Shown here: one piece after another, positions 32,228 to 61,720 of the stretch
Layout: each line of letters begins with the position of its first letter
Position numbering within the stretch: the first letter of the stretch is position 1
Virus record (IMG/VR): IMGVR_UViG_3300042291_000296
Location: 1 to 62,265 of that record
Source: a virus
Taxonomy: Duplodnaviria > Caudoviricetes
Strand: one strand, 5' to 3'
DNA: 62,265 bases
Notes under the pieces: generated by a model
Seen by the model: only the letters and a program-made list of their open reading frames with translations
The model's database searches: none
What the model was told of the DNA's origin: nothing
Program-made: the position numbers and the translations under genes

Positions 32228-33658
32228 ATGCCAATCAAAGATTATAGTACATATATACCAACAGCAGGTGTTGACTGGGGTAAAATAACCGAGGGTTTAA
32301 TCGGTAACATTAATGCAGTAGAGACTGGAAGAAAAGCAAATGATTTAGCAGTAGAGAAAGAAAAGGAAGCACTTGACTTAATCATGACCGATGCAAATGC
32401 GCTAATGAATAAACAGCAGTTGTATTCCTCACAAAACTTAAATGACTTTATATTAAACGGCGCTGATGCTGGAAGACAAAAGATATCAGAATGGAACAAA
32501 CTTTTAAAGAGCGGTCAATTAAGCCCTAAAGACTATAAAAAAAGAATAAATGCTCTCAACGATAATTGGAGCACGCTTGCAGGAACAGCAAAGCAATTTG
32601 ACGCAGCGAATAAAACGCTTATGGATAGACAGATTCCAGATGCAAAAACTGGAAATCCAACAGGTAGCCCATTTGAACAATATTTAGCTCTAATTCAAGC
32701 TGAACTTGGAGACTTAAAAGATAAAAAAATATTTTTTGACAATGAAACTGGAAAGTCTTATATTTCAAAAATATCAGATGGTAAGGTAGTTGATATGACA
32801 TCTACAATGAGTTACGCCCAACCTAATAATTTCCTTGATAATTTCTTTGATGTAGATAAAGAAATCATTGATCTTACTAAGAACCTTGAGCCTTATAAAA
32901 TAGAAAAGATAGATAGTAAGGGAAATAAAATAACTGAAGATCCATTTCAAAACGAAGCAACTGTGAACACCGTTATCGCATTCGAAAACGTTGTACTAGG
33001 TAACCCTCGATATACAGCTTCAGTTTTAGAAAAACTTTCTGGATCTAATATGGACTACTATAGAACAGATGAAGAAAAAAACCAAAAGATAAATGATCTT
33101 TTTGAAACAAAAAAGAAGGCAAGAGCTTATCTAAAACAACCTGATTATACAGCTGAAGAAGAAAAAAAATTAAAGGAAGAGTTAGCCGAAACATTAATTT
33201 ATACTGCGCTTGACCAAAATCAAGTTTATCAACCTGTTCCATCTGAAAAACAAATAGCGAAAGCTAAGAAACTTATTGATGATCAAATAAGATCACAGGT
33301 TGGATATGTAGGGACAATTGAAAGTATTAGTAGGGGCGGTGGCGGTGGCTCTGGAGGTGGCTCTAGAGGTGGCTCTGGGAAACCAACTGCTACAGAAATA
33401 AAGAATGCAGCAGATGAAAAAAAACAAAATGATTATTTTACTCAGGTATTGAATTCATGGGGTAACTCAAGCGAAATAGCGTCAATGCTTGGACGAGAAT
33501 ATAAGGTGACATGGGATCCTGGGAAAGGCATGGGTATAAAAAAAGAAGGTACAAAAGCTGCATATGTTTACTATAAACACCCAAGAGAAATGTTTGACCT
33601 ATTCGGATATGGCTCACCAGATAACAAAATAGCGTGGACTTCATTCTTTAAAAAATAA
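32228..33658 (+). CDS. Internal virion/ejection protein
   Basis: Helical, Gly-rich linker; lies between the small and giant ejection proteins. Confidence 0.65.
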   Translation: MPIKDYSTYIPTAGVDWGKITEGLIGNINAVETGRKANDLAVEKEKEALDLIMTDANALMNKQQLYSSQNLNDFILNGADAGRQKISEWNKLLKSGQLSPKDYKKRINALNDNWSTLAGTAKQFDAANKTLMDRQIPDAKTGNPTGSPFEQYLALIQAELGDLKDKKIFFDNETGKSYISKISDGKVVDMTSTMSYAQPNNFLDNFFDVDKEIIDLTKNLEPYKIEKIDSKGNKITEDPFQNEATVNTVIAFENVVLGNPRYTASVLEKLSGSNMDYYRTDEEKNQKINDLFETKKKARAYLKQPDYTAEEEKKLKEELAETLIYTALDQNQVYQPVPSEKQIAKAKKLIDDQIRSQVGYVGTIESISRGGGGGSGGGSRGGSGKPTATEIKNAADEKKQNDYFTQVLNSWGNSSEIASMLGREYKVTWDPGKGMGIKKEGTKAAYVYYKHPREMFDLFGYGSPDNKIAWTSFFKK

Positions 33659-33661
33659 ATA

Positions 33662-36600
33662 ATGGCAGAGATTGATGATGAAAATATTGTTAATGAGGAC
33701 AATCAATATTCTAGGGTTGATAATACAACTACCGAACCACCATTTAAATTTTCTTTAGATCAATATCTTAGCGATCTAACTGTTGATCCAATAACAACTG
33801 TTCCAGAAGTAACGGTAACGCCAAACGATGGGTTGTCTTCATACATGAGGACGTACTTAAATAACATTCAATCGGGTGCTAAAAAGGCAATGTCAAATGT
33901 AGACTTTAGTTATTTAGGCGGTGTTTTTGAGAAAGGATATGAAGGTGCACTTCGTGTCGTAGATCAAAATATTCAGGCGTTAAATATTTCTGAGGAAGAC
34001 AGAGCTAATATATATAAAGATCAAAAAAAAATTGATCAATATGTACAAGTGTATAATAACTGGAGAGACAGTGGGGGTACTGGTGAATTTGTTTTGTTTA
34101 ATCCAGATTTAGATCCTGAAACAGAATTTTCGGCAGAAAAACTTGGAACACAATTAAGCAAAAGAGAAAAAAAGTTGACTCAAGAAGAAATGAGGAAGCA
34201 AAACGAAACGGTAGTAAGAAGTAATAAGATAACGTCTGCTAATTTAAACATAAAACCAAAACCACTACCAAATAAAATAGCAACAACATTTGATGAAAAT
34301 ACGGGAGGATATATAACTGAATATCAACCAATCGAAAATAAAACTCTGGAACAGGAGATATCAACAGAAGTTATTCCTTCTTATATAGCTCAGACTAAAT
34401 TTTACGAAAAATTAGAAGAGAATGCTACTGCTAAAAGCATTATAAGTTTTAACAGGATTATGGAAGATAAAAGAAATCCTGCCTTAGGGTTTTTTGAAAA
34501 TGTTGTGCCCAAAGAAGTACTTGAATCTTCCCTAAAACAGATACAAAACAACTATACTGCTGATGGATATCTTGCCTACACAAAAGCTAATAATCTTCCT
34601 GCTGAACTAGACGTAAATACGTTAAACAATCATTTTAAAGGCACTGATATCTATTTTGATATGGATAATGGGGAGCTTAGGGTAAACTATGGAACCGCTA
34701 CAGAGAGAGCACTTCAAGAAAGTCCAGCAGATAGTTGGCTTATGCAGGCATATGAATATTTTTCTTATGCAGAAAGTGTAGGCCAGAATTCTCTAGTTTT
34801 TGATCCATCAAATCCAGAAGAATTATCTCAATGGATTCAAACGACATTGCTCACAGCAGAAGAGGAAAAAAGTATTAACACTGGCGACGTTGAAAAGAAT
34901 AGAAATAATTACTATAAACTACAACTTAGTCATCCTGAAAAATTTCAATCATCGCAGATTGACACCAAAGCAATTAATAATTATGTTGTTAAACAAAAAG
35001 AACAAGTAATTTACATAGCAAAACGGTTAGAATCAGATAAAAATGAATTGGATAAGTTAAAAGGAACTGAAACAATAATTAAATATGATAATCTTGCAAA
35101 AGAATTCACAACATTAAACGATAAGTTAACTGGAATAAAAAAAAATTTAGAGGGTAAAAAAAATCCGTCAGAAAAAGATATTAATGACTATAATTTACAA
35201 GTCGAAAATCTTAACAAAATTTATCAATCCATAGAACAATTAAAGAAGACTGACGAATTTTCTTATTATTCTGATTTAAACAAATCATTTGTCAGAAATT
35301 CAGAAGATCTGGTAAAGCTTAATGAAAATGCAAAAACGATTGAAGAACAAAATAAAGTAGTAGTTGCTAAAAAATACATAGAAAAAGAAGCACAGGGATC
35401 ATTTGTTGGAAATATAGCATCAGGACTTTATACAGGAATGATGGAGAAGGCAGAGAGTTCGGTTGTTTTAGCACTAGATGCAGCTGTAGGGACTGGGCTT
35501 ATTAAGGTTGACGATCTTTTCGGTCCTTCATACGCTGTGGATTTAGATAAAAGTGATACACAGAAGTACAATGAGTTTAAGAGGGAACTATCTAATGTTT
35601 TTGACAATGAAATAATAAATCGATATACTGAAGCAGCTTTTGGTACTACTGAGGAGTACGCTCAATCTGATAAAAGAAATGACTTTGAAAAATCTGCTCG
35701 AATGGTATCGGAATCATTAGGCGCAATGGCGGGTGGAGGTGGAAATAAATACCTTACTCTTTTTGGATTTTTCTCTCAGTCATACAATGCGATAAATAAA
35801 GAAATGAGGGGGGAGGAATTTGATGATTTAACTTCCTTTGAAAAAAATATATTGGCTGTACCAGTCAGTATAGCGGTGGGATATTTAGATAAACTTGGTG
35901 CAAAGATCTCACTTGGGGATCCTTTAGTTGAAAAATTATTACTTAAAACACTTGCAAAAGCTGTAACAGAAATCCCTAAGGATGCCACCATAGAATATGT
36001 AGAGTCAGTTGTGAAAAAAAGTATTGCCAACCAAATAGCACTAGGTACACTTAAGATTGTGGGAAGCTCATTTGCTGAAGGATTTACTGAGGGGGGTCAG
36101 GAGGTAGCAACTATGAGTGCAAAAGCTATATTTAATGAATACCACAAAAAAGATTTATTTAATTTACCAGATATAACTACCGAAAAGGGAAGGCAAGAGG
36201 CTAAGGATATTGTACTCGAAAATCTTTATTATGGAACGATTGGAGGGGGTATAATGTCAAGTGGAGAGCAATCTGTATCAGCCCTAAAAAATGGTTTTGA
36301 TAATTCAAAAGCAGACGCTAAATTTGATTTGTTGTACAATACAATAACTGACCCAGAATTAATTTTAACAGCTAAGAATGCTATAAAACTAGATTTAGCT
36401 AATAAAAAAATAACTAGAGAAACTGCCGAACAACGAATGGAGAGCGTGAACAGTGTATACTCTTTGTTTAAATCTATTCCAAAAGAATTGTCTACTGAAC
36501 AAAAAAAAGAGGCATTTAATTTAATAAGAGAAAAGCAAACAATAGAAAAAGAAATAGAAGGAAAGGATCCTGCATTAGTAAACGCTCAAAAAACCAGAGT

Positions 36601-39600
36601 CTCTGAAATAAATGAATCACTTAAAACAATAAGCAACAATGCCGCTAAAGAAACCACAAACAAACAGCAAGCAGGCACAGCAGAAGGCGGTGTCAGCGAA
36701 TATCAAGGAACTAGTGAAGGACAACCAGAAGGCGGGCAAGTCGAAGGGGGACAACGGAAAGCCACGGTCAATGAAACAGATAGTCGCAATAGCACTATCC
36801 CAAGCAAAGTACAAGAAGAAGTAACTACCTACAGAGCTGAAGAACAAGCGGAGCTTCTTAAGGTTATACCTAAAATAGAAAATTACAAGGTAAATGGTGA
36901 GATAGATAAAACTCTCATGCCAAAGACTGTACTAGATAAGTACAATAAGGTTTACAACAAGTATGACAATTTAATCAGTCCACTATTAGAGACCACAGGT
37001 GAAATCACAATCAACAAGCCTGCCATTGCTACCAATACAACAGCTGAGGTTAGCCGAGTAAAGTCATTGAAAGAAGTTGATGAGGATGGGGCTACATTTA
37101 ATATTGACGGGGTTAAGTACGAAGGTCCTGGATTGGTTGTACCTGTAATCAGCATGAACACAACAATGGAGGAGATTACTCCAGAGATGATATCTAACTT
37201 TGTTGAAGAGCACTCTGATAAGATCGGAGATTCTGAGACGGTAAAGGTTGGTATCTATAAGTTCCCTAATAGTAATCAGGTGTCTATAGACCTAAACATA
37301 CTTGCACCTGAATCATCTAGAGGTCAAGCTATTGAGTTTGGTCGATTGTCAGGACAGGAGTCTCTGTTTGACATGAGCACATTTGAAAATGTAAAGACTG
37401 GAGCTACAGGAGAAAATCCAATGCAGTTTACACCAAAGCAGTTTAAAGAAATTGCTAAGGCGTTAAAGGAGGGCAGGATGCCAAATGTTTTTGACAGTAA
37501 AGCAACTACAGCTAAAAAAATAGATTACAAGCAAAACTTAGTTACCCCTGAGAACTCAAGAGAAGTAGCATCAAAACAAGATACACCGTTAAAACAAAAA
37601 ATAGCTAAGTCAGCAGCTATGATAATGAAGTCTTTGCCTGGTGTTAAGATCTATCTTCATAACAATCAGTCAGAGATGCACCAAGCCATAGCAGATACAA
37701 CTGGTAGAAATGTAGATGATATATCTGATGAGGTAGGAAATGCAGCAGGAGCTCAAATTAAGAAAGAGATTCATGTAAACATGGATACTGCTAAGGAAAC
37801 TACAATACTACATGAGGCATTCCACGAGGCAATACTAAGATCTGGCAAGTCTTTTCAGACTATAACTGACTTTGCTAATGGTCTTAAAAATATTATATCA
37901 GACAAAGACGTTAAAGCTAAGTTAGACAAGTTTATCTCTATGTATAATGAATCAGATAGGGCAGAAGAGTTTCTATCTGAGCTTGGAGCTATTATGTCCG
38001 AAGCAGAGACTGAGCTAACAACCACAAAGTTTCAAAAGTTTTTAAATCTAATCAATAGAATAGCTAGAAGCTTAGGCCTACCTGTAATAATAAAGTCTAG
38101 TGCAACTGCACAAGAGGCTGTTGACTTTATTAATTATATGTCTAAAAGTCTTAGGACTGGTAAGGCGATTGAGGGAGATTATAGAGGTGAAGGTAAAATT
38201 AAAAGGCAGGACATAGAATTAAATGCTGAAATAAAAAAATCTCTTTCTGAGCAAGATTCTATTAAAATAGCTAAAGAAGTAGTAGATAAAACTATTAAAG
38301 GAAAGGCTATACCTACATGGGTACAAAAAAAGACTTCCAATAAAGTTAAATTTGTTTCGTTTTCAGGAGAAATTAATCAAAAAAATGTAAAGGAAAATGC
38401 TCCTTCAAGTTATAATAGTACAGCTGCTAAATTTTCAAATTATAATACTTTTAATATTAATGTAAAACAAGAATTAAATAATTCTTTAGCTGGAGCTAGT
38501 AAAGAAAGTATAAATAAAGCTCTAGAACATAATAAAAATAAATTATTACCTAAAATAAATTCATTATTAAAAGAAATTGTAAAAATTAAAAGTAATAAAA
38601 AATTAACTAAAGAAGAGAAATTAAGTAAGATAAGTTTAAGAAATGAAGCTATTGTTAATATTAAAAAAATAGCAAAAATGAAAGATCTTAATGATCAATT
38701 AAATGCTGTTTTAAATATTGAACATAAATCAACTAAAGATTCATTGTATAATAGTATGTTTTATGATTTATCAACTAATTTAAAAAGATTAAAAGGACTA
38801 GAACTTGAAAATAAATCTGAAGGTATTTATAAAAAAGCAAAAGATATTGTTAAGTCAAATCTTTTATCTGTATATAATTCTGTTTCACCTAGAATTAGAC
38901 AAATAAGTAAATTATGGTATGATGGAGCTAATTTAATAGCTCAAGATATGGCTAATAACTATGAGTTAACTAATGAGCAGGCAGCTGCAATAATAGCAAC
39001 TCAATCCCCTCAGATGCCGTGGTTTGACAACTTACATCTTGCTGATGTAATTATGAATTTAATGCATTCAGAAAGTAATAGTATATTTACTAAAGAATTA
39101 TTTGATTATTATGTATCTAAATCTGAAGGGTATGCAGAACAGAAAAAATATATTCCTACTCTTTTAAAAGCTATAGGAACTCCTTTGTCTAAATTATCAG
39201 ATTTAGATGCTGCTATTTTTATTAGAGCTTATTATGACACTAAATTAAGTAGAAAAGCACCTATTAGAATACCAACTGGAACAGCTATATCTGAGGATCA
39301 AAAAGGAGATTCATCATTTAGTGGTTATAGTGTAATAGCTAAGGGTATATCTATATTTAGAGATGGGAGTATTGAAAATATATCTAATCAATTAGGAGAA
39401 GCAAATAAGGTTAGAAACTTTTACATGAATATTGCAGATCCATCTGACAAGAGAGCTGTAACTATAGATACTCATGCTATGGCAATTGCATTGTTTAAGC
39501 CATTAGCATCAAATGATTATGAAGTAAATTTTGATGCTGCTACATTTGCTTTTTATGCTGATGCATATAGAGAGTTAGCTGATGAATTAGGAATTGAAGC

Positions 39601-42600
39601 TAGAGCATTACAATCTATAACATGGGAAGCAGCAAGAGCTATTTTCCCTGCTAAAGAAAAAGCTAAATCTGGATACAAAGAAAAGATCTCTAACATATGG
39701 GATGAATTAGTTAGTGGAAATAAATCATTATATAAAGTTCAAGAAGAAATATTTAATCAATCACAAGACCCTAATATAACAGAGTGGTCTGAATACATAA
39801 ACATATTAAAAGATGAAAAAGCAAGAACAAATGTCAGTGGAAGAATTGTTGGATTGGAAGGGACTAGAGCCACCAATAACATGGGAGCAGTATCAGGAAC
39901 TAGTATCGGAGAATCCAAATCTTCAGGAAGAACTGGAGTATCTAGCAGAGGAGCCAAAATAAAACTCCAAAAGACCACACAAGAAACAAGAATGGACAAG
40001 GAGTCTGAGGATGTATTCAAGAAGTCATTAGATAGTGGAACAGATTGGGCCACATCTACTCAGGATGCACTAGACTACATACAGAAGTCAAATTGGTATC
40101 AAGATGCAACCGATATAGAGAGAGAACAGAAGGTAAGAGACTTTAAAGAATCTAAAAAACAGAAACTAAAGAAGGCACCATCTGTAGCTAAGATAATGGG
40201 CACGCCTAAACCAAAGATGGTTACAGTTAACGAGGCGGCTGCATTTAAAGATCAACTAAGACTAGAGGCCAAGGCAGCTAGAGAGGCTAGGGGTGACCTA
40301 AACTTTAAAAGAAAGTCGTTGTCTGATGCCATCAAGTCAATGGCTAAACTTGGAAAATTAAAGGTGAGCCAAGCGACCACAATCATCACAAGAGTTAGTA
40401 AAGTAAATCTTGATAGTTCAGTACAGGTTGACAGACTTATTGACTACGCAGCCAAAGTATTCGAGAGGGCAAACTATCAAGATAGATTAAATGATGCATT
40501 CTCTTACAAAAGGGCTATCAGAAAGTTATTAAAGACAAACAATCAGGCACAGGTTGTTGGCATGGCCAATGAGTTTACAAAGCTAGACCCATCTATGGTT
40601 GAAAATATAGAGGAATATATAGATATTGCTGAGAAAGTTAAGAAAGCAGTAGCTCCATCAAGAGCTAAAACATTTACTATTGACAACGATAATTACTTTG
40701 ACATGGTATTAAAACAAGCTACAAACATAGAGGCGGTGTCAAAATTTGTAAAAGATGAACTTGAAAAACAAGATCAACAATTAAAGGATGAGCTCTTGGC
40801 TACTAATAATGAGCTATTAGAATCTGGGTTTATATCTCGTGACATGACGGCAAAACAAATACAAGGAGTTATTGATTCAATGAAAAAGGATCCAGCATAT
40901 AAAATGGATAGCAAAGAAAAGGAAGGTTACATGATGACTTACCTATCACAAAGATTTAATTCATTGGCAGAAGTAATTTCAGACATTATAAAAACAAATC
41001 AAAATCCAGTTACTGGAGAAAGGGTAGCTATAGATCAAAAAGATGTAGCTATAATGTCAGATTTATTGAAGGTTGATCTGTCAGAAATGGGTGTCAGAGA
41101 TGCTCTTTTTATTGTTGAGGCAATGGACAACTTTATAACTAATGGAATCACTAGCAAGCTAGAGGGAGCCTTGTCTGCATACAAGGGGCAAATGGGTCTT
41201 AAAGAAGAGATAAAGTCGGGTAAGGTTGCTAGACCATTAAGGCTTTACTTTACTAAAAAAGCAGGCAGGGAGTTTGCAATTGAGTTTACACCTCTTCCAT
41301 TAATGATAGAGAGGATGTTTAATGGAGTTAAAAGTGGAATAAGTATAATGAAGTCTATGGGACTTTCTATTGTTATTAATGGTGTTAATAAGGCAAATTA
41401 TCTACACAACAAGATAATAGATGAGTACTACAACAAATTTATAAGGAAGAGTAAAACATTTCATACCCCTGAAAATGTATACGAAAGGGGTATGCTGGCC
41501 TTCTTGAAAAGAAATGTTACTGGTTCATTAGAAGAAATGAAGGCAGAGACAAATAGAAGAGTTAAAATGATAACACAAAGTATTACTACTTTAAAGAATA
41601 AAGGAGATAAATCACAAAAAGCTATGGCAGAAATTTATCAAAAAGTATTTGATAAGTTAGACGTAAGCACTGGAGACATAGACGTGATTGAATCAAGGGC
41701 ATCAAAAGAAAATAAAGATGCTGTTAACTGGTGGATAAACCAGTGGTCTAAACACTATAAAGATCTTTCTGATGTAAGTTTGTCGGTGTATAACTATGAC
41801 CTAGGAAGTGACCTTAACTATACCCCAGATAAATATAAGTTAATAAAAACTGAAGAGTTTGATCAAAAATTAATAGAAAGAAACTCATCGTTCTTGATTA
41901 GCATGGATAATTATACAGACAAAGAAAAAACAGGGGTTTTGATGCAATCAACCAGACCTAATGCTATGGAAGAAGGTAGATACCTGAGCTTTGATTTTGA
42001 TGCAAATAACTCTAACTCACTTAAGGGTGCACTAGTAGATATAAATACAGCGGCTGGAATAAGACAGATAGATGGATTTTTAAATTCAAAATTATTGGAT
42101 AAGCTGATACCAAGTACTGAAGATAGAGATGCATTAGTAATTAGAGTAAATAGATATATAAGAAGGTCTAAGGGTAAGATATTTATGCCTAAAGATTTGT
42201 ATAAGGATGTAGATTCGGTTATCAATTTTGCTGCGAGACTTGGTGTTGGTAAGGCACTAGGTGGTGTGCTACAGTCGGTAAAACAAACAATACCTATTGC
42301 AATAAGTACAGCTATAATGACAGGAAGGTTTAATATACCTAGCGTTAGTTTCAATGAGTGGCTAAACAAGACTGGCATGCCAATAGCAAATCGGGGTTTA
42401 GATTCACTGTCTGCTATAGAATCTGTAGACAGAAGACTGGACGCTAAGGCCACAGGGTTTAATAAACCATTAAAGTGGGTTCAAAAAACACAACAGCTAT
42501 ATCTAAAGTGGTTCTTATCAAAGCCAGATGTAATGATTGCAAGGATGGCATTCCAGTCATACTACTTACAGTATATGAAAGAGAGTTCTATTGACTGGGC

Positions 42601-44002
42601 TAATCATACCCCAAATCAAGATGCATTAAACTATGCTGAGGCTATGGTTGGTAGACAACAAAATATAAATGATCCAATGCTTGGTGGAGAATTCTTAACT
42701 GCTGAAGATAGTATGAAGAGGATATCTAAAAAGGTATTACTTCCATTTGCTTCTTTTGGATTAAATCAAAAGGCTAGATTAAATTCAGATTTAATTAACA
42801 TGGCTTCTAAGACAACTAGCGTTGAAGATAAAAAGATTGCATTTAAATCAGCTACTGCTACACTAGCAGAGATGGTTGCGTACAGAGCTATAGCTGTTGG
42901 AATTAGTTATGGGTTCTATAAGTCCGCTGAAGCTATAATTAAAAATTATGTGGGTGACGATGAAGATGATGATGACGATGAGGAAAGAGACAAGAAGTGG
43001 TTTTTAAGTTCTGTAAAATTCCCCCTTAAGTCAATGATAAACGACCTTATATCACCTCTTCCACTAACAGATGAATATGTTACAATGGGAGCCGACTATA
43101 TTCTATCTCAATATACTGGATACACTGAAGCTGAATTAGATGAACTAGTTAAAAATGAAAACGAGATAAGAGGATTAAAGGGTCTAGATCCATTGGAAGG
43201 TCGGCAGCTAAAGAAGTTTAGAGAAGAAGAAAAGAAAGAAAGCTTATATCAACTTGCAGGTAAATATGAAAGTAGTGCGTTTGGAATGGGATCAATTTTT
43301 TATGATGCAGCTAAAAAGTTTTATTATGAATATCAGTTAGCTATGACTGGGGAATTTAAGGATGAATATAGAGGAAATGTAACCACTAAAAAGATAAGAC
43401 CAGTGGAGCAAGAAGTAATTAAAAATAGTCTTTACTTCTCTGCTTTGTATCTGTTAGAAATACTTCCAAAAGAAGCAGATCAAATGACCACAAAAGTTGT
43501 TAACATGATTAAAAAGAATGCCATGTCTGAGCCACAATATGAAAAATATGAAGGCTTTAAAAAAGAATACAAACGTGAGCCTAGTTATTTAGAGATGGCT
43601 TTAATTAGATCTGAAAAAAAACAAGATTACATAGAAACTGAACTTAATTTTATTAAGGATGAGGGTGGATTAAGCTTAGTTCAATCTAAAGAATATGTTA
43701 AAATATTTAATTTAATAAACGAAGTTACACCTGATGATCTTTCTAAAATAAAGGAAGGTCAAACAGCTGATCAAATTATTAAATCTTTGAAAAAAGAATA
43801 CAAAGAACAAATTTCTGAGGTAGAAACTGAAACAGAAGGAGACGGAGGAGAGGTATTGCAACCAACAAAAAAAGAAGTAGTGGTCGAAGAGATATTAAAA
43901 CCAACTGAAAAAAAGAAAGAAGTCGAAGAGGTATTACAACCAACTAAAATAAATGAAGAAATAGAAGAGGTACTTCAGCCGATAAAACCGCCTAGTCTAT
44001 AA
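33662..44002 (+). CDS. Giant (3446 aa) polyvalent ejection protein with zincin, HhH-like and putative SAM-lyase-like domains
   Basis: Last gene of the virion module; HEAFH (37811) plus EEF; WY...SPQ..W..N...KVRNFY.NI...VTIDTH...LQSITW; GATFN domain at 37085-37395. Confidence 0.75.
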   Translation: MAEIDDENIVNEDNQYSRVDNTTTEPPFKFSLDQYLSDLTVDPITTVPEVTVTPNDGLSSYMRTYLNNIQSGAKKAMSNVDFSYLGGVFEKGYEGALRVVDQNIQALNISEEDRANIYKDQKKIDQYVQVYNNWRDSGGTGEFVLFNPDLDPETEFSAEKLGTQLSKREKKLTQEEMRKQNETVVRSNKITSANLNIKPKPLPNKIATTFDENTGGYITEYQPIENKTLEQEISTEVIPSYIAQTKFYEKLEENATAKSIISFNRIMEDKRNPALGFFENVVPKEVLESSLKQIQNNYTADGYLAYTKANNLPAELDVNTLNNHFKGTDIYFDMDNGELRVNYGTATERALQESPADSWLMQAYEYFSYAESVGQNSLVFDPSNPEELSQWIQTTLLTAEEEKSINTGDVEKNRNNYYKLQLSHPEKFQSSQIDTKAINNYVVKQKEQVIYIAKRLESDKNELDKLKGTETIIKYDNLAKEFTTLNDKLTGIKKNLEGKKNPSEKDINDYNLQVENLNKIYQSIEQLKKTDEFSYYSDLNKSFVRNSEDLVKLNENAKTIEEQNKVVVAKKYIEKEAQGSFVGNIASGLYTGMMEKAESSVVLALDAAVGTGLIKVDDLFGPSYAVDLDKSDTQKYNEFKRELSNVFDNEIINRYTEAAFGTTEEYAQSDKRNDFEKSARMVSESLGAMAGGGGNKYLTLFGFFSQSYNAINKEMRGEEFDDLTSFEKNILAVPVSIAVGYLDKLGAKISLGDPLVEKLLLKTLAKAVTEIPKDATIEYVESVVKKSIANQIALGTLKIVGSSFAEGFTEGGQEVATMSAKAIFNEYHKKDLFNLPDITTEKGRQEAKDIVLENLYYGTIGGGIMSSGEQSVSALKNGFDNSKADAKFDLLYNTITDPELILTAKNAIKLDLANKKITRETAEQRMESVNSVYSLFKSIPKELSTEQKKEAFNLIREKQTIEKEIEGKDPALVNAQKTRVSEINESLKTISNNAAKETTNKQQAGTAEGGVSEYQGTSEGQPEGGQVEGGQRKATVNETDSRNSTIPSKVQEEVTTYRAEEQAELLKVIPKIENYKVNGEIDKTLMPKTVLDKYNKVYNKYDNLISPLLETTGEITINKPAIATNTTAEVSRVKSLKEVDEDGATFNIDGVKYEGPGLVVPVISMNTTMEEITPEMISNFVEEHSDKIGDSETVKVGIYKFPNSNQVSIDLNILAPESSRGQAIEFGRLSGQESLFDMSTFENVKTGATGENPMQFTPKQFKEIAKALKEGRMPNVFDSKATTAKKIDYKQNLVTPENSREVASKQDTPLKQKIAKSAAMIMKSLPGVKIYLHNNQSEMHQAIADTTGRNVDDISDEVGNAAGAQIKKEIHVNMDTAKETTILHEAFHEAILRSGKSFQTITDFANGLKNIISDKDVKAKLDKFISMYNESDRAEEFLSELGAIMSEAETELTTTKFQKFLNLINRIARSLGLPVIIKSSATAQEAVDFINYMSKSLRTGKAIEGDYRGEGKIKRQDIELNAEIKKSLSEQDSIKIAKEVVDKTIKGKAIPTWVQKKTSNKVKFVSFSGEINQKNVKENAPSSYNSTAAKFSNYNTFNINVKQELNNSLAGASKESINKALEHNKNKLLPKINSLLKEIVKIKSNKKLTKEEKLSKISLRNEAIVNIKKIAKMKDLNDQLNAVLNIEHKSTKDSLYNSMFYDLSTNLKRLKGLELENKSEGIYKKAKDIVKSNLLSVYNSVSPRIRQISKLWYDGANLIAQDMANNYELTNEQAAAIIATQSPQMPWFDNLHLADVIMNLMHSESNSIFTKELFDYYVSKSEGYAEQKKYIPTLLKAIGTPLSKLSDLDAAIFIRAYYDTKLSRKAPIRIPTGTAISEDQKGDSSFSGYSVIAKGISIFRDGSIENISNQLGEANKVRNFYMNIADPSDKRAVTIDTHAMAIALFKPLASNDYEVNFDAATFAFYADAYRELADELGIEARALQSITWEAARAIFPAKEKAKSGYKEKISNIWDELVSGNKSLYKVQEEIFNQSQDPNITEWSEYINILKDEKARTNVSGRIVGLEGTRATNNMGAVSGTSIGESKSSGRTGVSSRGAKIKLQKTTQETRMDKESEDVFKKSLDSGTDWATSTQDALDYIQKSNWYQDATDIEREQKVRDFKESKKQKLKKAPSVAKIMGTPKPKMVTVNEAAAFKDQLRLEAKAAREARGDLNFKRKSLSDAIKSMAKLGKLKVSQATTIITRVSKVNLDSSVQVDRLIDYAAKVFERANYQDRLNDAFSYKRAIRKLLKTNNQAQVVGMANEFTKLDPSMVENIEEYIDIAEKVKKAVAPSRAKTFTIDNDNYFDMVLKQATNIEAVSKFVKDELEKQDQQLKDELLATNNELLESGFISRDMTAKQIQGVIDSMKKDPAYKMDSKEKEGYMMTYLSQRFNSLAEVISDIIKTNQNPVTGERVAIDQKDVAIMSDLLKVDLSEMGVRDALFIVEAMDNFITNGITSKLEGALSAYKGQMGLKEEIKSGKVARPLRLYFTKKAGREFAIEFTPLPLMIERMFNGVKSGISIMKSMGLSIVINGVNKANYLHNKIIDEYYNKFIRKSKTFHTPENVYERGMLAFLKRNVTGSLEEMKAETNRRVKMITQSITTLKNKGDKSQKAMAEIYQKVFDKLDVSTGDIDVIESRASKENKDAVNWWINQWSKHYKDLSDVSLSVYNYDLGSDLNYTPDKYKLIKTEEFDQKLIERNSSFLISMDNYTDKEKTGVLMQSTRPNAMEEGRYLSFDFDANNSNSLKGALVDINTAAGIRQIDGFLNSKLLDKLIPSTEDRDALVIRVNRYIRRSKGKIFMPKDLYKDVDSVINFAARLGVGKALGGVLQSVKQTIPIAISTAIMTGRFNIPSVSFNEWLNKTGMPIANRGLDSLSAIESVDRRLDAKATGFNKPLKWVQKTQQLYLKWFLSKPDVMIARMAFQSYYLQYMKESSIDWANHTPNQDALNYAEAMVGRQQNINDPMLGGEFLTAEDSMKRISKKVLLPFASFGLNQKARLNSDLINMASKTTSVEDKKIAFKSATATLAEMVAYRAIAVGISYGFYKSAEAIIKNYVGDDEDDDDDEERDKKWFLSSVKFPLKSMINDLISPLPLTDEYVTMGADYILSQYTGYTEAELDELVKNENEIRGLKGLDPLEGRQLKKFREEEKKESLYQLAGKYESSAFGMGSIFYDAAKKFYYEYQLAMTGEFKDEYRGNVTTKKIRPVEQEVIKNSLYFSALYLLEILPKEADQMTTKVVNMIKKNAMSEPQYEKYEGFKKEYKREPSYLEMALIRSEKKQDYIETELNFIKDEGGLSLVQSKEYVKIFNLINEVTPDDLSKIKEGQTADQIIKSLKKEYKEQISEVETETEGDGGEVLQPTKKEVVVEEILKPTEKKKEVEEVLQPTKINEEIEEVLQPIKPPSL
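36639..36824 (+). CDS. Nested +1-frame small basic protein (MPLKK...SANIKEL...KQIVAIALSQA)
   Basis: Matches a recalled widespread phage small-protein pattern; the host frame here is a low-complexity linker. Confidence 0.7.
   Translation: MPLKKPQTNSKQAQQKAVSANIKELVKDNQKAGKSKGDNGKPRSMKQIVAIALSQAKYKKK
39813..39962 (+). CDS. Nested +1-frame small acidic protein (49 aa)
   Basis: Translated by hand: MKKQEQMSVEELLDWKGLEPPITWEQYQELVSENPNLQEELEYLAEEPK; A-rich leader; host frame is a G/S/R linker. Confidence 0.55.
   Translation: MKKQEQMSVEELLDWKGLEPPITWEQYQELVSENPNLQEELEYLAEEPK
43846..43985 (+). repeat. Four EE(V/I)L(Q/K)P(T/I) peptide repeats at the giant protein C-terminus
   Basis: EVLQPT, EEILKPT, EEVLQPT, EEVLQPI. 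Confidence 0.8.
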
Positions 44003-52257: not shown

Positions 52258-52328
52258 AAGTCAGGACAGGAATCGAACCTGTATACTCCGACTTAAAAGG
52301 TCGGGCTTTACCATTAAGCCACCTGACT
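52258..52328 (-). tRNA. tRNA-Lys(UUU), atypical
   Basis: AGTCAGG/CCTGACT acceptor, GCTT/AAGC D arm, CCGAC-CTTTTAA-GTCGG anticodon arm, ACAGG-TTCGATT-CCTGT T arm; no encoded CCA. Confidence 0.85.
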
Positions 52329-57263: not shown

Positions 57264-57620
57264 TCATAGGTCGATTGAATGGCCGTCGTTAATATTGAAG
57301 ATTGCCTTCTGCTCGTTAATCTTGCCAATCAATATTGCGTCAGATAGATTGTCTACTACGATTGATACGTCGAGGTATAGCCATCCATCGTCGACCCATC
57401 CGCCTATGTTGTTCTCGGGCAGAGATAGTTCAAGCCCGTGTACAGCACAGAAGTTATAGAGCGTGTGCTCGATCGATTGTCTTGTGTCGTCTATTGGTGT
57501 CTTAGAGCCTCCCTTCAGACTGACCGCATAGCCAGTTTTTGGTGATGTACCATTTGATAGATTGAATGTGGCTCCACCATTCTGAATGATGGAGTCCACG
57601 AAGTCATGTAGGTTTTTCAT
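57264..57620 (-). CDS. Early protein, putative SAM-lyase-like; paralog of a domain in the giant protein
   Basis: GGATFN...GYAV...IGGW..DG.LYLDVS...AILIG...EQKAIF. Confidence 0.6.
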   Translation of the reverse strand: MKNLHDFVDSIIQNGGATFNLSNGTSPKTGYAVSLKGGSKTPIDDTRQSIEHTLYNFCAVHGLELSLPENNIGGWVDDGWLYLDVSIVVDNLSDAILIGKINEQKAIFNINDGHSIDL

Positions 57621-57632
57621 AGTTTCTAGGTT

Positions 57633-57770
57633 TTAAAGGTTACAAAAAAAATCGTCATCAACAAATAGTGTTGCGCTAAAATATTCGTTTAGTTGTTCTA
57701 TTGTCATATCTTCTCTATCTGATAATTCAAATAGCTCGTCTTGGTTCAATTGGCTTATTGTTCTGTACAT
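57633..57770 (-). CDS. Small acidic early protein (45 aa)
   Basis: Translated by hand: MYRTISQLNQDELFEL...LFVDDDFFCNL. Confidence 0.6.
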   Translation of the reverse strand: MYRTISQLNQDELFELSDREDMTIEQLNEYFSATLFVDDDFFCNL

Positions 57771-57772
57771 GG

Positions 57773-57982
57773 TTATTTATAATTATGGTTTATTACTTCT
57801 ATTCCTACACGTATTCCGTATTGAATCTCTTCCATTATCCGTTCGTTAGTCAGAGCCATCGCTAGTGCTGATTGCTTCTGATTGTCTGTTAGGCTGTCGT
57901 CATCTACATCGTGGATGCTCCATAAATTGTCTACGTAATACCCTGCGTTGCGTAGTACTTCCTTTGCTTGTTCTGTTGTCAT
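57773..57982 (-). CDS. Small early protein
   Basis: AKEVLRNAGYYVDNLWSIHDV; preceded by the conserved leader. Confidence 0.65.
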   Translation of the reverse strand: MTTEQAKEVLRNAGYYVDNLWSIHDVDDDSLTDNQKQSALAMALTNERIMEEIQYGIRVGIEVINHNYK

Positions 57983-57994
57983 AGGTTCTAGGTT

Positions 57995-58168
57995 TTATTG
58001 GTTAGTAATTAATTCATAGTCTTCAATGTAATCTTGTATGTCTTCAGTTTGTGAGCCGTAATCACGCTCGTATACTTTATGGTTATTAATAGTAACAGAA
58101 AATATTTCACATGTGTTTTTTGAATTGCTGTCTACATATTCTTCGATTATAAATTGTGTAGTTCTCAT
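57995..58168 (-). CDS. Small early protein (57 aa)
   Basis: Translated by hand: MRTTQFIIEEYVD...; preceded by the conserved leader. Confidence 0.6.
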   Translation of the reverse strand: MRTTQFIIEEYVDSNSKNTCEIFSVTINNHKVYERDYGSQTEDIQDYIEDYELITNQ

Positions 58169-58180
58169 AGGTTCTAGGTT

Positions 58181-58405
58181 TTAAAATATTAATTTATCAA
58201 ATTCTGTGTACATATCTGCATACTCCATCGGGAATCTATCCTTCAATGCTTGGAGTAAGATATCGTTGTCAAATTCCTCGTAGCCATCTCGCTCTGCGTT
58301 AACGATTGGTTGGATGACCTCAGCTATTTGGTCATCGTCTAGTGTTGTTAATAGATAGAAGTCCTCGTCTATCCACGCTGTTGTGTTTATTCTAATTACT
58401 CTCAT
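58181..58405 (-). CDS. Small acidic early protein
   Basis: ORF preceded by the conserved leader. Confidence 0.65.
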   Translation of the reverse strand: MRVIRINTTAWIDEDFYLLTTLDDDQIAEVIQPIVNAERDGYEEFDNDILLQALKDRFPMEYADMYTEFDKLIF

Positions 58406-58417
58406 TTGTTCTAGGTT

Positions 58418-58684
58418 TTAAAGTTCATATTCGTTTCCATCCTCGTCATAATATACATCGTCATCAGTCTCTTCCCACTCCGTGTAGTAGTACAACTCCT
58501 CCTCGTAATAGTGGTTCATCATTGATTTGTCTGATTCAAAGTTTAGGTTTTCTTCTTTAGCCAAACCTTTCAACCATTCGATTAAGTGTTGCTTCTCAGA
58601 GAAGTGTAGGTCACCTGCTCCAACAACAAATCCTTCGTTCATGCCCACTCCTGTGGCATCACATTTTCTTGCATATCTGTCCAT
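58418..58684 (-). CDS. Small acidic early protein
   Basis: YARKCDATGVGMNEGF...YYYTEWE; very acidic C-terminus. Confidence 0.7.
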   Translation of the reverse strand: MDRYARKCDATGVGMNEGFVVGAGDLHFSEKQHLIEWLKGLAKEENLNFESDKSMMNHYYEEELYYYTEWEETDDDVYYDEDGNEYEL

Positions 58685-58698
58685 AAGTTCTAAGGGTT

Positions 58699-59049
58699 TT
58701 ATTGGTTAATAAATTTAGCTGTGTAATCTCTATCTGATATAGCCTTGTAATTGTCAGTATCGAACGGGTTCTTTACTACGTTTCTGAACTGCCGACCATT
58801 TGGCATGCTGTACTCGATGACATATCCTTGTGATTGTGAATAGTTGATAAAATAACCATCCCTGTCCGCTTGATTTCTGAACACCTGTACATCGTCAAGA
58901 AGAAATTGTACCTCTCTCATTGTAAAGTCTACAAGGATTGTCTCGTGTTCTAGCACACACTCTAAAGTTACCCTGTTGCCTACTATCTCGTGTACCTTGT
59001 GGTCACGACCTTTCATATCTCTGTGGTTTACATTTACGATTGCTCTCAT
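58699..59049 (-). CDS. Early protein
   Basis: ORF preceded by the conserved leader. Confidence 0.6.
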   Translation of the reverse strand: MRAIVNVNHRDMKGRDHKVHEIVGNRVTLECVLEHETILVDFTMREVQFLLDDVQVFRNQADRDGYFINYSQSQGYVIEYSMPNGRQFRNVVKNPFDTDNYKAISDRDYTAKFINQ

Positions 59050-59074
59050 AGGTTCTAGTTTTTAGTTTGGTTAG

Positions 59075-59248
59075 TTAATCTTGACAAGCATATATTACTT
59101 GCATCAAGCTATTGTATAAGAATTTTCCATTGTATGTCTCGCATCCAAATCGATTGATAGTGATGTCGTTATCACTTAGCTGTAGAGTGGTATAAGTTCC
59201 TGTGCGTTGACCATAGCTGTCAATGTCGCATACATAATAAGTTTTCAT
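59075..59248 (-). CDS. Small early protein (57 aa)
   Basis: Translated by hand: MKTYYVCDIDSYGQRTG...; preceded by the conserved leader. Confidence 0.6.
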   Translation of the reverse strand: MKTYYVCDIDSYGQRTGTYTTLQLSDNDITINRFGCETYNGKFLYNSLMQVIYACQD

Positions 59249-59253
59249 AGGTT

Positions 59254-59487
59254 CTATTTTTTATTTGGTTGAAACATACTCTTTTTAAATCTAATCAATT
59301 GACCCTCCGTGTACTTGAGTAGGTCTTCTAGCTTATCTCTATCAACGTCAATTATCCCGTGTATTGGATGCTTGATATCATTTATGCCACGAAAATTTAT
59401 GTTTCGTTTCAATTGCTCTATGATAGTTATCTCTCTGATGAATCCATCTGTCTTGTGGAATCCAATGTTGTTCATTCGCTCGTTCAT
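59254..59487 (-). CDS. Small early protein
   Basis: ORF preceded by the conserved leader. Confidence 0.6.
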   Translation of the reverse strand: MNERMNNIGFHKTDGFIREITIIEQLKRNINFRGINDIKHPIHGIIDVDRDKLEDLLKYTEGQLIRFKKSMFQPNKK

Positions 59488-59505
59488 AATTTCTAGGTTT
59501 TAGGT

Positions 59506-60021
59506 TTATAGTACTCTCTCTCTTACTAGCTCAAGGAAGTTTGTCTTAGCTACCAACTCTTCGATTGTATCAAATCGGTCATTAGAGCCGTTGTATTCGT
59601 ATTGTAGTTTTACACCTCGTGAGTATATGTTACCGAACGAATCTATTACGTCATTTAAACGAGCGACTTTTACCCTTACGATTACACAATCTGCATGGTG
59701 CGTTGAATGGTTTTTGTCTCGTCTAATCACTAGATCGGGTTGGTCGTAGTGACCATTCTCACTACCATACTTTTGAACTGATGCTGTAGGTAGGTCTGCT
59801 TTGAATAGATTCACTAAACGTATCGCCTCTTCGGTCGCTAGTTTATCCCATGCCTCCATATCAGCCTTTCTTCTAGCTAAATACTTTTCGATTTCATTTG
59901 TCTTATCGTTCAATGCATTTACGTTGATTAGATTGAACGTTGTAGTTGGTTTGTGCATAGCCTCAATTCTATTGATTTCGTTTACTAATGCATCAACGAT
60001 TTGCTGTTGGTTGGTTGTCAT
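59506..60021 (-). CDS. Early protein
   Basis: 171-aa ORF preceded by the conserved leader. Confidence 0.65.
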   Translation of the reverse strand: MTTNQQQIVDALVNEINRIEAMHKPTTTFNLINVNALNDKTNEIEKYLARRKADMEAWDKLATEEAIRLVNLFKADLPTASVQKYGSENGHYDQPDLVIRRDKNHSTHHADCVIVRVKVARLNDVIDSFGNIYSRGVKLQYEYNGSNDRFDTIEELVAKTNFLELVRERVL

Positions 60022-60033
60022 AATTTCTAGGTT

Positions 60034-60240
60034 TTATTGGTTAATATATCTCTCGTTAAATTGCTCTTGTGTTACCTCACTATTCTCTATGCCCAAGTTG
60101 AACGCTACCTCCGTAACAAATTCTCCGTTCTCAGGGTTCAAGATGCTATCAGGCCAATAGCCTGTGCATGTTTCGGTTTTGTTAATTATAGCACAACCGC
60201 TTAGGACTATCGTTGCTATTAAAATTGATATCGTTTTCAT
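60034..60240 (-). CDS. Small lipoprotein
   Basis: MKTISILIATIVLSGC lipobox. Confidence 0.65.
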   Translation of the reverse strand: MKTISILIATIVLSGCAIINKTETCTGYWPDSILNPENGEFVTEVAFNLGIENSEVTQEQFNERYINQ

Positions 60241-60250
60241 AGGGTTTAGT

Positions 60251-60463
60251 TTAAAATTCATTAATATGATTCTCTATTATATACTTGCAGTCAGATAGAG
60301 TAATGTAATGGTTGCAGTAATCATAATGACCTTGCATACCATCCAATTGTGATTCAACAAATAGCAACATCATCCATTGCCCATCTTCACTTTTTTCACA
60401 TTGGAATACTTTACCTTTGTTCTCTATCTTATAGATGCCCGTATTAATTCTAGTCACTTTCAT
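60251..60463 (-). CDS. Small early protein
   Basis: MKVTRINTGIY; leader variant upstream. Confidence 0.6.
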   Translation of the reverse strand: MKVTRINTGIYKIENKGKVFQCEKSEDGQWMMLLFVESQLDGMQGHYDYCNHYITLSDCKYIIENHINEF

Positions 60464-60468
60464 AGGCT

Positions 60469-60618
60469 CTAGTTTTGATGCCACACCTCGTCAAACACAT
60501 AGTTATAACGCCTTGTGGCATAGTTAATGAAATTGGTTAAATGACTCTCGTCTGTGAATGTTTTTCTCATAACTATCTGCTTCCCGCTGATGTTTATGAA
60601 TGTCAGTACTACCTCCAT
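60469..60618 (-). CDS. Small early protein
   Basis: MEVVLTF...KTFTDESHLTNFINY. Confidence 0.55.
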   Translation of the reverse strand: MEVVLTFINISGKQIVMRKTFTDESHLTNFINYATRRYNYVFDEVWHQN

Positions 60619-60716
60619 CCTCTTACTCTTAATTTGTTTGTTCTGATTAATACTCCCTCGTTGAAAAAGCCCCATATCTCAAAGGCTCCCTCGATTTTAA
60701 TGATTTTACTAGTCAT
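60609..60716 (-). CDS. Small early protein (35 aa) directly downstream of the hammerhead
   Basis: Translated by hand: MTSKIIKIEGAFEIWGFFNEGVLIRTNKLRVRGWR; conserved leader. Confidence 0.55.
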   Translation of the reverse strand: MTSKIIKIEGAFEIWGFFNEGVLIRTNKLRVRGWR

Positions 60717-60734
60717 TTTTTCTAGGTTTTAATT

Positions 60735-60785
60735 GGTTAAGACGCTTCACAGCGTTTCGGATATTGAATCCATCTTCAGTTAACC
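60735..60785 (-). ncRNA. Type I hammerhead ribozyme
   Basis: Minus strand GGUUAA-CUGAAGA-U-GGAU(UCAAU)AUCC-GAAA-CGC(UGUGAA)GCG-UC-UUAACC: complete core, three stems, GUC cleavage triplet. Confidence 0.9.
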
Positions 60786-60786
60786 T

Positions 60787-60891
60787 TTAGATGGAACAAT
60801 GAACACCGAATGTGATGACATTGTGGATGATAACTACTGCTAATAAAATAATACCGCTTAGCAAAACGATTGGGGCTGTTAGATTTTTCAT
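60787..60891 (-). CDS. Small single-TM early protein (34 aa)
   Basis: Translated by hand: MKNLTAPIVLLSGIILLAVVIIHNVITFGVHCSI; conserved leader. Confidence 0.55.
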   Translation of the reverse strand: MKNLTAPIVLLSGIILLAVVIIHNVITFGVHCSI

Positions 60892-60913
60892 TGTGTTAGG
60901 TTTTAATTGGTTA

Positions 60914-60960
60914 GTGGTGCAGTAGGTATCGCTCCTATTAATAGTCATTCTAACTGCACC
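60914..60960 (-). ncRNA. tRNA-like minihelix (acceptor stem + T-arm-like hairpin)
   Basis: GGTGCAG...TAGG-AGCGATA-CCTA-CTGCACC-A; no anticodon arm. Confidence 0.4.
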
Positions 60961-61560
60961 TGTATGTTGTTACTTGCACCACGCTTATATAGATGGAATT
61001 GAACCACCACAAGTAAATTGTTTTGTTTTGGCGGGAGCGTTAACACTCGTTCTCCCCTATCGTTTTTGTCTTGCAATCACTCTCTATGCCTCACTCTTTA
61101 AACATCTATCTATGTATCACCATAGCCTACCGACATTCATACCCTCGACATATACCATTTTGCATCGTGTACCTTTCCAATATCTAACATTTTTGATTTA
61201 AGCATTCATGTTCATTCTCAGTAGACTAATATTCCGTGCTCTTAATACTTTCATCTAGTCTATGTCATAATGACTGCTAGAACTAAGAGTCTTGTTGTTC
61301 ATCCCCATGTGTGTCGCTGTAAATCGCTGTTGGCTCGTTTGCCTTACATTACTATAATGCTATTTGTTTAAAAATGTTACACTTTGTTTGAAAGTTTTTT
61401 TTCAATTGACACGTTATTTTAACAAATATATGATGTATATCGTTGTGTATCAATGAGTTACATAGGTAAAAAATAATTGAAAATAGTTTGTTATTTTTTT
61501 GTAACGGATGGTGTAACCCCTCCACTACACCCGTGCGATTGGATTCGATGCATTCCTTTT

Positions 61561-61720
61561 GGTCGGTCGGTCGGTCGATAGGTCGACAGGTCGACAGGCA
61601 TACAGGTCGATTGGTCGGTCGGCAGACAGACATACAGGTAGGTCGGGCGACAGGTAGGTAGTTCGGTCGGCATATCGGGTGAGATAGGTAGCACAGGTGA
61701 GCGGGCGGAGGGGGGGGGTG
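61561..61720. repeat. Degenerate period-4 repeat (GGTC/GACA/GGCA/GGTA)n followed by a G run
   Basis: Read directly; GC-rich island at the early/late strand switch. Confidence 0.85.

Follow-up and report, generated by a model that had tools for sequence, protein, structure and literature searches.

A hammerhead motif in the first gap of a block of small phage genes

The DNA analysed here (the window) is the 62,265-bp virus genome of IMG/VR record IMGVR_UViG_3300042291_000296, complete according to CheckV. Genes on its plus strand include those for a large terminase, a portal protein and a GroEL-like chaperonin, together with a 3446-aa ORF. From 45381 upward the minus strand encodes a primase/helicase-like protein, a helicase and exonucleases, with a run of small ORFs upstream of them that extends to 60948. 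The terminase is 68% identical to that of an uncultured podovirus (MW202828.1), 44% identical to those of Elemovirus phages of Flavobacterium and about 36% identical to those of Cellulophaga phages. Judging by these relatives a Flavobacteriia-type host is likely, and the source is likely a podovirus-like phage of such a host.

The element studied here lies within the gap between the first two cistrons of the small-ORF block, and the ORFs on both sides of it are on the same strand (Table 1). We call these genes early on account of their position and size. The mechanical ORF list runs gene 1 back to an ATG at 60948 (53 aa). We prefer the start at 60891, since a leader 17-mer that also precedes gene 2 is found just upstream of it, at 60913–60897. 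Homologues of gene 2 lie downstream of the same ribozyme in two other contigs (L002 and L062); in an alignment (A5) three rows, which by input order correspond to L062, L002 and L003:2779-2886, are 54–59% identical to gene 2. The gene 2 product has no PHROG or Pfam match. Searches of GenBank phages by tblastn gave no match for this 35-aa product or for a 536-aa ORF, and a 'distant' blastn search of 60300–61300 against the same phages gave none either.

Table 1. Positions of the hammerhead, its parts and the neighbouring features in the window
Feature	Position	Strand	Remarks
Early gene 1	60787..60891	-	34-aa hydrophobic product MKNL...HCSI; probable ATG at 60891; TAA at 60789-60787
Competing hairpin (predicted)	60769..60795	-	UCCAUCU (60795-60789) pairs with AGAUGGA (60775-60769)
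Unpaired A 5′ of stem I	60786	-	With A60734, caps the 6-bp stem I (A/A cap)
Stem I, 5′ strand GGUUAA	60780..60785	-	Pairs with 60740-60735
Catalytic core C3 U4 G5 A6 N7 G8 A9	60773..60779	-	CUGAAGA
Extra U between A9 and G10.1	60772	-	
Stem-loop II	60759..60771	-	GGAU/UCAAU/AUCC; G10.1-C11.1 (G60771-C60759) closes the core
Core G12 A13 A14	60756..60758	-	GAA
Stem-loop III	60742..60755	-	ACGCU/GUGA/AGCGU; starts with the A15.1-U16.1 pair (A60755-U60742)
C17	60741	-	Predicted scissile bond 60741/60740
Stem I, 3′ strand UUAACC	60735..60740	-	Would be the first six nt of the 3′ cleavage product
Leader, A-rich and G-poor	60717..60734	-	Carries the early-gene leader motif AAAACCTAGAA
Early gene 2	60609..60716	-	35-aa product MTSKIIKIEG...; ATG at 60716

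Read directly, the minus strand from 60785 to 60735 is a complete type I hammerhead of 51 nt, which starts 1 nt 3′ of a TAA stop codon and whose predicted cleavage site lies 24 nt 5′ of the next ATG. Its elements follow each other in the order of stem I 5′ strand, CUGANGA, hairpin II, GAAA, hairpin III, H17 and stem I 3′ strand. Both ends of the motif lie in helix I and helices II and III are capped, which places it in the type I class. Stem III has 5 bp and a GUGA tetraloop of the GNRA type. Aside from one extra U, all 15 base pairs and all core positions are intact. Hammerheads are cleaved 3′ of C17, a position set by their established mechanism, and the cut is accordingly predicted at 60741/60740.

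The initial annotation of this site, made from the letters of the sequence, agrees base for base with this reading as regards the hammerhead elements and their minus-strand coordinates. It had also placed the motif 1 nt after a stop codon, as it is (TAA at 60789–60787, then A60786), and had predicted the cut where the bond 3′ of C17 falls. Two details need amendment. Stem III, given there as ACGC/GCGU, is present and is 5 rather than 4 bp long; and the motif, called canonical, has the elements of a hammerhead but departs from the canonical form in the U between A9 and G10.1.

The same annotation held that the released RNA would begin with a conserved early-gene leader, and the leader is indeed repeated. 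The 17-mer TAACCAATTAAAACCTA occurs exactly at 60739–60723 and again before gene 1 at 60913–60897. When up to two mismatches were allowed, AAAACCTAGAANNNATG gave 14 matches in comparison with 1.19 expected, and nine of the 14 mark a run of minus-strand gene starts from 57618 to 60730. The stem I 3′ strand followed by the leader is also found at junctions that have no ribozyme (60913–60897, 60043–60025 and 58004–57986). Stem III was considered as an intrinsic terminator and this was rejected, as no terminator-like site was found in 60300–61500. Folding of the region upstream of gene 1 (61020–60885) was not better than that of shuffled sequences (z −0.63).

Rfam models miss the element and its relatives

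To search the window we used a type I descriptor composed of CUGANGA, zero or one extra nucleotide, hairpin II, GAAA, hairpin III opening with an A-U pair, H17 and stem I. On both strands of the 62,265 bp it had one match, the site at 60785..60735.

The Rfam hammerhead check proposed with the initial annotation turned out negative for the window copy, in scans and directed searches alike. An Rfam 15 cmscan of the full window at gathering score returned no hammerhead and only a tRNA at 52258–52328. At E ≤ 10 no hammerhead family was reported in 60300–61300 or in the 91 nt around the motif. The site stayed unmatched as well when the record was searched specifically with RF00163 and RF03152; the only matches of these searches were sub-threshold and elsewhere, at 15838–15889 (11.2 bits) and 32282–32353 (12.9 bits). 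We regard these as noise, since control genomes give matches at such a weak level too (13/14 and 9/14).

Twelve related loci likewise had no Rfam hammerhead at gathering score. The best score of a relative without the extra U (L047) against RF03152, RAGATH-1-hammerhead, was 19.1 bits with a cut-off of 56.3. RF03152 and RF00163 share the type I core and helix arrangement, and the alignment of L047 to RF03152 takes in the entire core. Scores are far under the cut-offs, and the 5′ hairpin of RAGATH-1 is unmatched. Because relatives without the extra U are missed too, the failure of Rfam is a limit of the models and not counter-evidence.

A large family with covarying stems and an invariant core

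An exact 26-mer spanning the core and stem II was found in two other viral contigs, where stem III differs yet still pairs. Successive pattern scans of viral contigs recovered the same core with differing stem III in 2, 8 and finally 59 loci, the last with a pattern in which stem I and the core were fixed and stems II and III were free. A regular expression run over the fetched loci gave 82 instances, 62 of them distinct. We then built a covariance model from 13 relatives, leaving the window copy out. In the window this model had a sole match at E ≤ 10, the hammerhead site, with 59 bits and an E-value of 5.8e-14. Over 64 sources (614,668 bases in total) it found 119 copies, and all its full-length matches keep the type I order of elements. 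One contig stretch (L061) carries 8 copies within 5.4 kb.

Base pairing was assessed on an alignment of 85 distinct rows (A3), derived from the covariance model and fitted to its structure. Standard pairs make up 99.7% of its 1304 cells, and in 14 of the 16 pairs both partners have changed. Compensatory cells number 265, with a shuffle mean of 64.6, and none of 500 shuffles reached the observed value on any of five measures. When the partner was slid by one column, pairing fell to 41–45%. Since A3 had been fitted to the model, covariation was recounted after 28 copies had been aligned with MAFFT, blind to structure. Here pairing was 100%, with 39 compensatory cells against 10.1 in shuffles (0/500). 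In the MAFFT alignment the two measures based on numbers of pairs or of pair types were not above shuffles, since the search pattern had fixed stem I and some of stem III.

Conservation along the motif follows what a catalytic fold requires of each position. C3, G5, A6, G8, A9, G12, A13 and A14 are each the same in 85/85 distinct rows, and U4 in 84. The free core position N7 is A in 56 rows, U in 14, C in 14 and G in one. At H17, 74 rows have C and 11 have A; G and U do not occur. Of the pairs next to the core, G10.1-C11.1 is kept in all 83 rows that have letters at both positions and A15.1-U16.1 in 85/85. The three inner pairs of stem II covary (GC, AU, UA and CG), in agreement with the MAFFT alignment. 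The remaining pairs of stem III covary heavily, and its length ranges from 5 bp up to long extended hairpins. In stem I each of the 6 pairs has at least one both-side change in A3; its near-invariance is partly a matter of ascertainment, most copies having been found via a pattern that fixes this stem. The base before stem I is A in 87/87 distinct contexts and the base after it is A in 85/87. Loop II is mostly U-N-A-N-U.

Invariant catalytic nucleotides, a free N7 and compensatory changes in stems II and III argue for selection for the catalytic fold. It is this conservation that decides the case: as judged from sequence, 60785..60735 is a genuine type I hammerhead. The identity given in the initial annotation therefore stands, backed by 119 related copies in which stems II and III covary and the catalytic core does not vary.

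An extra nucleotide and a predicted competing hairpin in the window copy

The G10.1-C11.1 pair is present in the window copy, but A9 and G10.1 are separated by U60772. Of the 85 distinct rows, 16 have an insertion at this place, in every case a U. Stem II covaries in this sub-family (GGAU/AUCC, GACU/AGUC, GAGU/ACUC, GGCU/AGCC and GGGU/ACCC), which argues for selection on a working fold. Two relatives (L047 and L056) have exactly the hammerhead sequence of the window minus the extra U, with unrelated flanks.

A hammerhead with one additional nucleotide at the same place is known from CChMVd, where it is of type III. The natural extra base of this viroid RNA, in its (+) hammerhead, is an A (A10) and not the U of the window; the CChMVd motif retains activity, with a moderate rate decrease caused by the extra A (De la Pena and Flores 2001, as described in PMC3705267). 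Replacement of this A by U raised the rate of trans cleavage 3–4 fold (PMC3705267). By analogy with this precedent, the inserted base of the window copy is compatible with activity.

The minimum-energy fold of the isolated 51-mer is the hammerhead secondary structure (−11.9 kcal/mol). With at least 10 nt of upstream sequence added, a competing 7-bp hairpin is predicted at −16.9 kcal/mol versus −13.4 kcal/mol for the hammerhead fold. Its 5′ arm is made up of the final codons of gene 1 plus the first stop-codon base, and its 3′ arm of core G8-A9, the extra U and the 5′ strand of stem II. With upstream sequence the predicted probability of stems I and II is below 1%. We rejected this hairpin as a conserved switch: its upstream arm is not kept in relatives, so it is not a feature of the family. 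According to these predictions it may slow the window copy.

Loop II and the flanks were examined for a pseudoknot, and their mutual information was not above the shuffled level; fast cleavage at physiological Mg2+ is consequently not assured. The fixed 6-bp stem I, the A/A cap and the U-N-A-N-U loop II, taken as sequence features, nevertheless suggest a tertiary contact.

These properties bear on the possibility that the window copy belongs to a true family but has decayed or is very slow, leaving a mostly uncleaved passive remnant. We consider this unlikely. The extra U does depart from consensus, but 16 distinct rows share this form and show compensatory changes in stem II, and a U at the inserted position made the most active CChMVd variant (PMC3705267). 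While the competing hairpin has a predicted advantage of 3.5 kcal/mol over the hammerhead fold as soon as the upstream RNA reaches 10 nt, a ribosome translating or terminating at the end of gene 1 would cover its 5′ arm and so block it. No Rfam model scores the copy and the element is missing from the nearest GenBank relative; against a remnant speaks the intact state of the other core positions and of all 15 base pairs.

Copies are placed at gene boundaries

An ORF of 30 codons or more begins 10–45 nt past the cleavage site in 90 of the 97 distinct contexts, as compared with 313 of 2000 random positions drawn from the same loci. The distance from cleavage site to ORF start has a median of 22 and is mostly 19–24 nt; it is 24 nt in the window. 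The upstream frame often ends within the ribozyme itself: its stop is the TGA in CUGA in 26 contexts and the TAA in GGUUAA in 31, so that the 5′ part of the cassette, GGUUAACUGA, often provides the stop codon of the upstream gene. Most of the remaining upstream frames end a few nt before the ribozyme, and 5 of the 97 contexts have none.

ORFs downstream of the ribozyme are small (median 71 aa among 90 distinct ones) and mutually unrelated. A common downstream function was not found: no PHROG accounts for more than 2 of the 90, and 5 Pfam families are represented by one ORF each. Such variety points to a generic gene-boundary cassette and not to a regulator of a particular gene.

Two cultured phages carry the family. 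Flavobacterium phage vB_FspP_elemoE_6-9C, whose host is Flavobacterium sp. BAL314, has one copy on the minus strand at 16304–16361, between two minus-strand genes; its record annotates a small hypothetical CDS on the opposite strand at the ribozyme site. Cellulophaga phage phi18:3 (host C. baltica #18) has one copy on the minus strand at 21904–21958. The stems I of the two are GGCAAA/UUUGUC and GAUUAA/UUAAUC. No copy was found with the covariance model in MW202828.1, the closest GenBank relative of the window, or in Cellulophaga phage phi38:1, which makes the element dispensable. A search with a strict pattern over one genome per prokaryotic species returned 5 stretches only, from a Paraflavitalea chromosome, a Pedobacter MAG and three other MAG contigs. 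The hammerhead family is mainly phage-borne and its distribution is patchy.

Discussion

Self-processing of the early polycistronic mRNA by the hammerhead is, on the sequence data, the most likely role of the element. It fits the same-strand ORFs on both sides, the placement at a median of 22 nt before the next ORF and the published proposal for phage hammerheads (as outlined in PMC3088659). An early transcript would be made from the non-coding region at about 61000–61400, and the 51-nt motif would fold in it as a three-way junction. The 2′-OH of C17 (60741) would attack the adjacent phosphate, and the RNA would be cut at 60741/60740. The mRNA of gene 1, encoding the 34-aa hydrophobic peptide, would then retain the ribozyme and a 2′,3′-cyclic phosphate at its 3′ end. 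The downstream mRNA would start with 5′-OH UUAACC, followed by an A-rich leader devoid of a Shine-Dalgarno sequence, with 24 nt to the AUG of gene 2. Acting as a cassette, the ribozyme would part the cistrons while a leader of fixed length presents the next start codon. From the motif and its relatives we judge it very probable that the early transcript self-cleaves after C60741, giving a cyclic-phosphate end on gene 1 and a 5′-OH with a short unstructured leader downstream. Its placement, together with the literature, suggests that the likely benefit is uncoupling of the cistrons, with the leader freed from pairing with upstream RNA and with separate stabilities and translation rates. RiboJ, a synthetic ribozyme insulator, offers a works-like comparison for the shielding of a cistron from upstream RNA, although it is an engineered part.

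Some features of the family would also suit a cassette kept mainly for a role other than cleavage, with ribozyme activity incidental: either a two-frame stop joined to a translation-leader module, or a homology patch of about 50 bp that shuffles early genes. The sequence of stem I and the A/A cap are almost invariant where ordinary helices would drift; among the 92 contexts with an upstream stop (97 examined), 57 have the upstream frame closed by a TAA or TGA in the first 10 nt; the stem I 3′ strand and leader recur at three junctions without a ribozyme; and the same ribozyme stands beside differing genes across contigs, at most 2 of 90 sharing a PHROG. None of this explains the invariant catalytic nucleotides, the compensatory changes in stems II and III or the free N7, and such roles can coexist with cleavage instead of replacing it, and we regard a cassette kept mainly for such a role as very improbable. 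A chance resemblance to the hammerhead consensus within AT-rich intergenic DNA can practically be dismissed: short degenerate motifs do arise at random, and 26 of 1000 dinucleotide-preserving shuffles of the window contained some loose match to the descriptor, but a match of equal quality, with stems of at least 6, 4 and 5 bp, appeared in just 2 of 1000, and the 118 related covarying copies found elsewhere already refute this explanation.

It has been known since 2011 that phage operons can be punctuated by hammerheads (PMC3088659). Perreault et al. describe hundreds of bacterial hammerheads near prophage genes, including arrays on either side of single phage genes or of short gene blocks, the identity of which varies; three clustered prophage arrays cleaved in vitro, and the proposed role was the processing of long phage transcripts to mRNAs of gene length (PMC3088659). 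The family described here resembles these prophage and phage hammerheads in its core, its three-way junction, its intergenic position and the occurrence of multiple copies per genome. It differs from them in the near-fixed stem I, the A/A cap, the U-N-A-N-U loop II, the spacing of 19–24 nt to the AUG and its association with Bacteroidota phages, and the window copy differs further in its extra U.

The same paper contains a description of HHphage from haloviruses HF1 and HF2, located 13 nt 5′ of the start codon of an early gene in a polycistronic transcript, where a mapped 5′ end falls within 3 nt of the cleavage site; HHphage is analogous in structure to the HHmeta variant, and that variant requires very high Mg2+ (PMC3088659). 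Like the window copy, HHphage lies just 5′ of an ORF in the early region of a dsDNA virus. However, HF1 and HF2 are archaeal viruses and HHphage precedes the first ORF, whereas the window copy lies between two ORFs.

Bacteria and phages are known to harbour type I hammerheads in which helix III is longer, as a 2026 report notes (PMC13725137). The same source describes hammerheads of RNA viruses a few nt upstream of ORFs, among them a fusarivirid site 7 nt before the ORF2 start, where the 5′ end was confirmed by RACE (PMC13725137). These are eukaryotic RNA viruses, unlike the source of the window, but in both settings cleavage near an ORF start would set a defined 5′ end. Among the matches listed in our literature search, no work joined a hammerhead with a Cellulophaga or Flavobacterium phage. 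A 2019 review states that the purpose of hammerheads in phages needs additional work to define (PMC6765202).

Four traits of the family may be new: a fixed stem I with its A/A cap, stop codons built into the element, a tightly kept distance to the AUG in phages whose hosts do not use Shine-Dalgarno sequences, and the invisibility to Rfam. A dedicated covariance model would improve the annotation of phages, given that Rfam models miss the family and that in the elemoE record the ribozyme site carries an opposite-strand CDS. The window locus itself is an ordinary example. The value lies in the family, which is numerous, has a regular placement between stop and start and is found in cultured phages; with two cultured phage-host pairs carrying it, its role is directly testable.

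Initiation in the Bacteroidota hosts of these phages does not involve Shine-Dalgarno pairing. Tentatively, and with clearly less confidence than we place in cleavage as such, we suggest that the GGUUAA...UUAACC hammerheads could be a 'stop, cut, start' cassette of Bacteroidota phages, about 75 nt long, whose near-identical copies might in addition provide recombination joints for the shuffling of small early genes between phages. If this is true, the cassette ends an ORF by the TAA or TGA in stem I and the core, cuts the RNA and leaves an unstructured, A-rich leader of 19–24 nt with a 5′-OH. Cleavage would then go beyond transcript trimming and be a translation-enabling and insulating step, with the leader needed for efficient initiation.

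Leader sequence at small-gene junctions

At the starts of nine successive small genes (window 57618-60730, minus strand) we observed the same leader, AAAACCTAGAANNNATG, which is of a non-Shine-Dalgarno type. Several of the upstream proteins in this run have a C-terminal ...NQ, and it is because they end in this way that TTAACCAATAAAACCTAGAA spans the stop codon. The 3′ strand of hammerhead stem I and the adjoining leader are therefore reused at junctions lacking a ribozyme (60043-60025 and 58004-57986, minus strand).

Elements upstream of gene 1

The region preceding gene 1, the early gene upstream of the hammerhead, contains a 43-nt block that is near-identical in three contigs (the window and the viral loci L002 and L062), with flanks that are otherwise unalignable among them. 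Inside the block lies a T-arm-like hairpin, GGTGG / TTCAATT / CCATC; folding of the block region was no better than that of shuffles. The block could be the early promoter or another RNA element. Closer to gene 1, the hairpin GGTGCAGT / ACTGCACC is replaced at the equivalent place in L002 by a different pair, GCTGCCG / CGGCAGC, with complementarity kept; this hairpin could form the 5′ stem-loop of the early transcript.

Features of the window and of a related phage
Feature	Location	Strand	Remarks
GroEL-like chaperonin, phage-encoded	window 2584-4143	plus	phrog_5725, E 3.1e-129
3446-aa ORF	window 33662-44002	plus	only a short PHROG match, function unknown
Hairpin GGTGCAGT / ACTGCACC	window 60960-60953 with 60923-60916	minus	directly precedes gene 1 leader
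43-nt block ACTTGTGG...GCAAGT	window 61014-60972	minus	~80-120 nt upstream of gene 1
Degenerate tandem array, units related to GGTCGACA	window 61561-61672		non-coding, near record's end
gp65, hypothetical CDS, Flavobacterium phage elemoE_6-9C	L068 990-1097 = NC_055854.1 16289-16396	plus

Other features and family copies elsewhere

The tandem array shows periods of 8, 16, 24 and 32. In size, the 3446-aa ORF is reminiscent of the giant virion RNA polymerases found in N4-like and crAss-like phages.

Among the family copies in other viruses, the one in elemoE_6-9C (locus L068) is overlapped by gp65. The genes on either side of gp65 are encoded on the other strand, and gp65 itself is probably a false gene prediction. 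A CCGACGA variant, in which core position 4 is C and not U, was found at L012:7281-7330 and in five identical copies; it may represent a weakened or inactive hammerhead.
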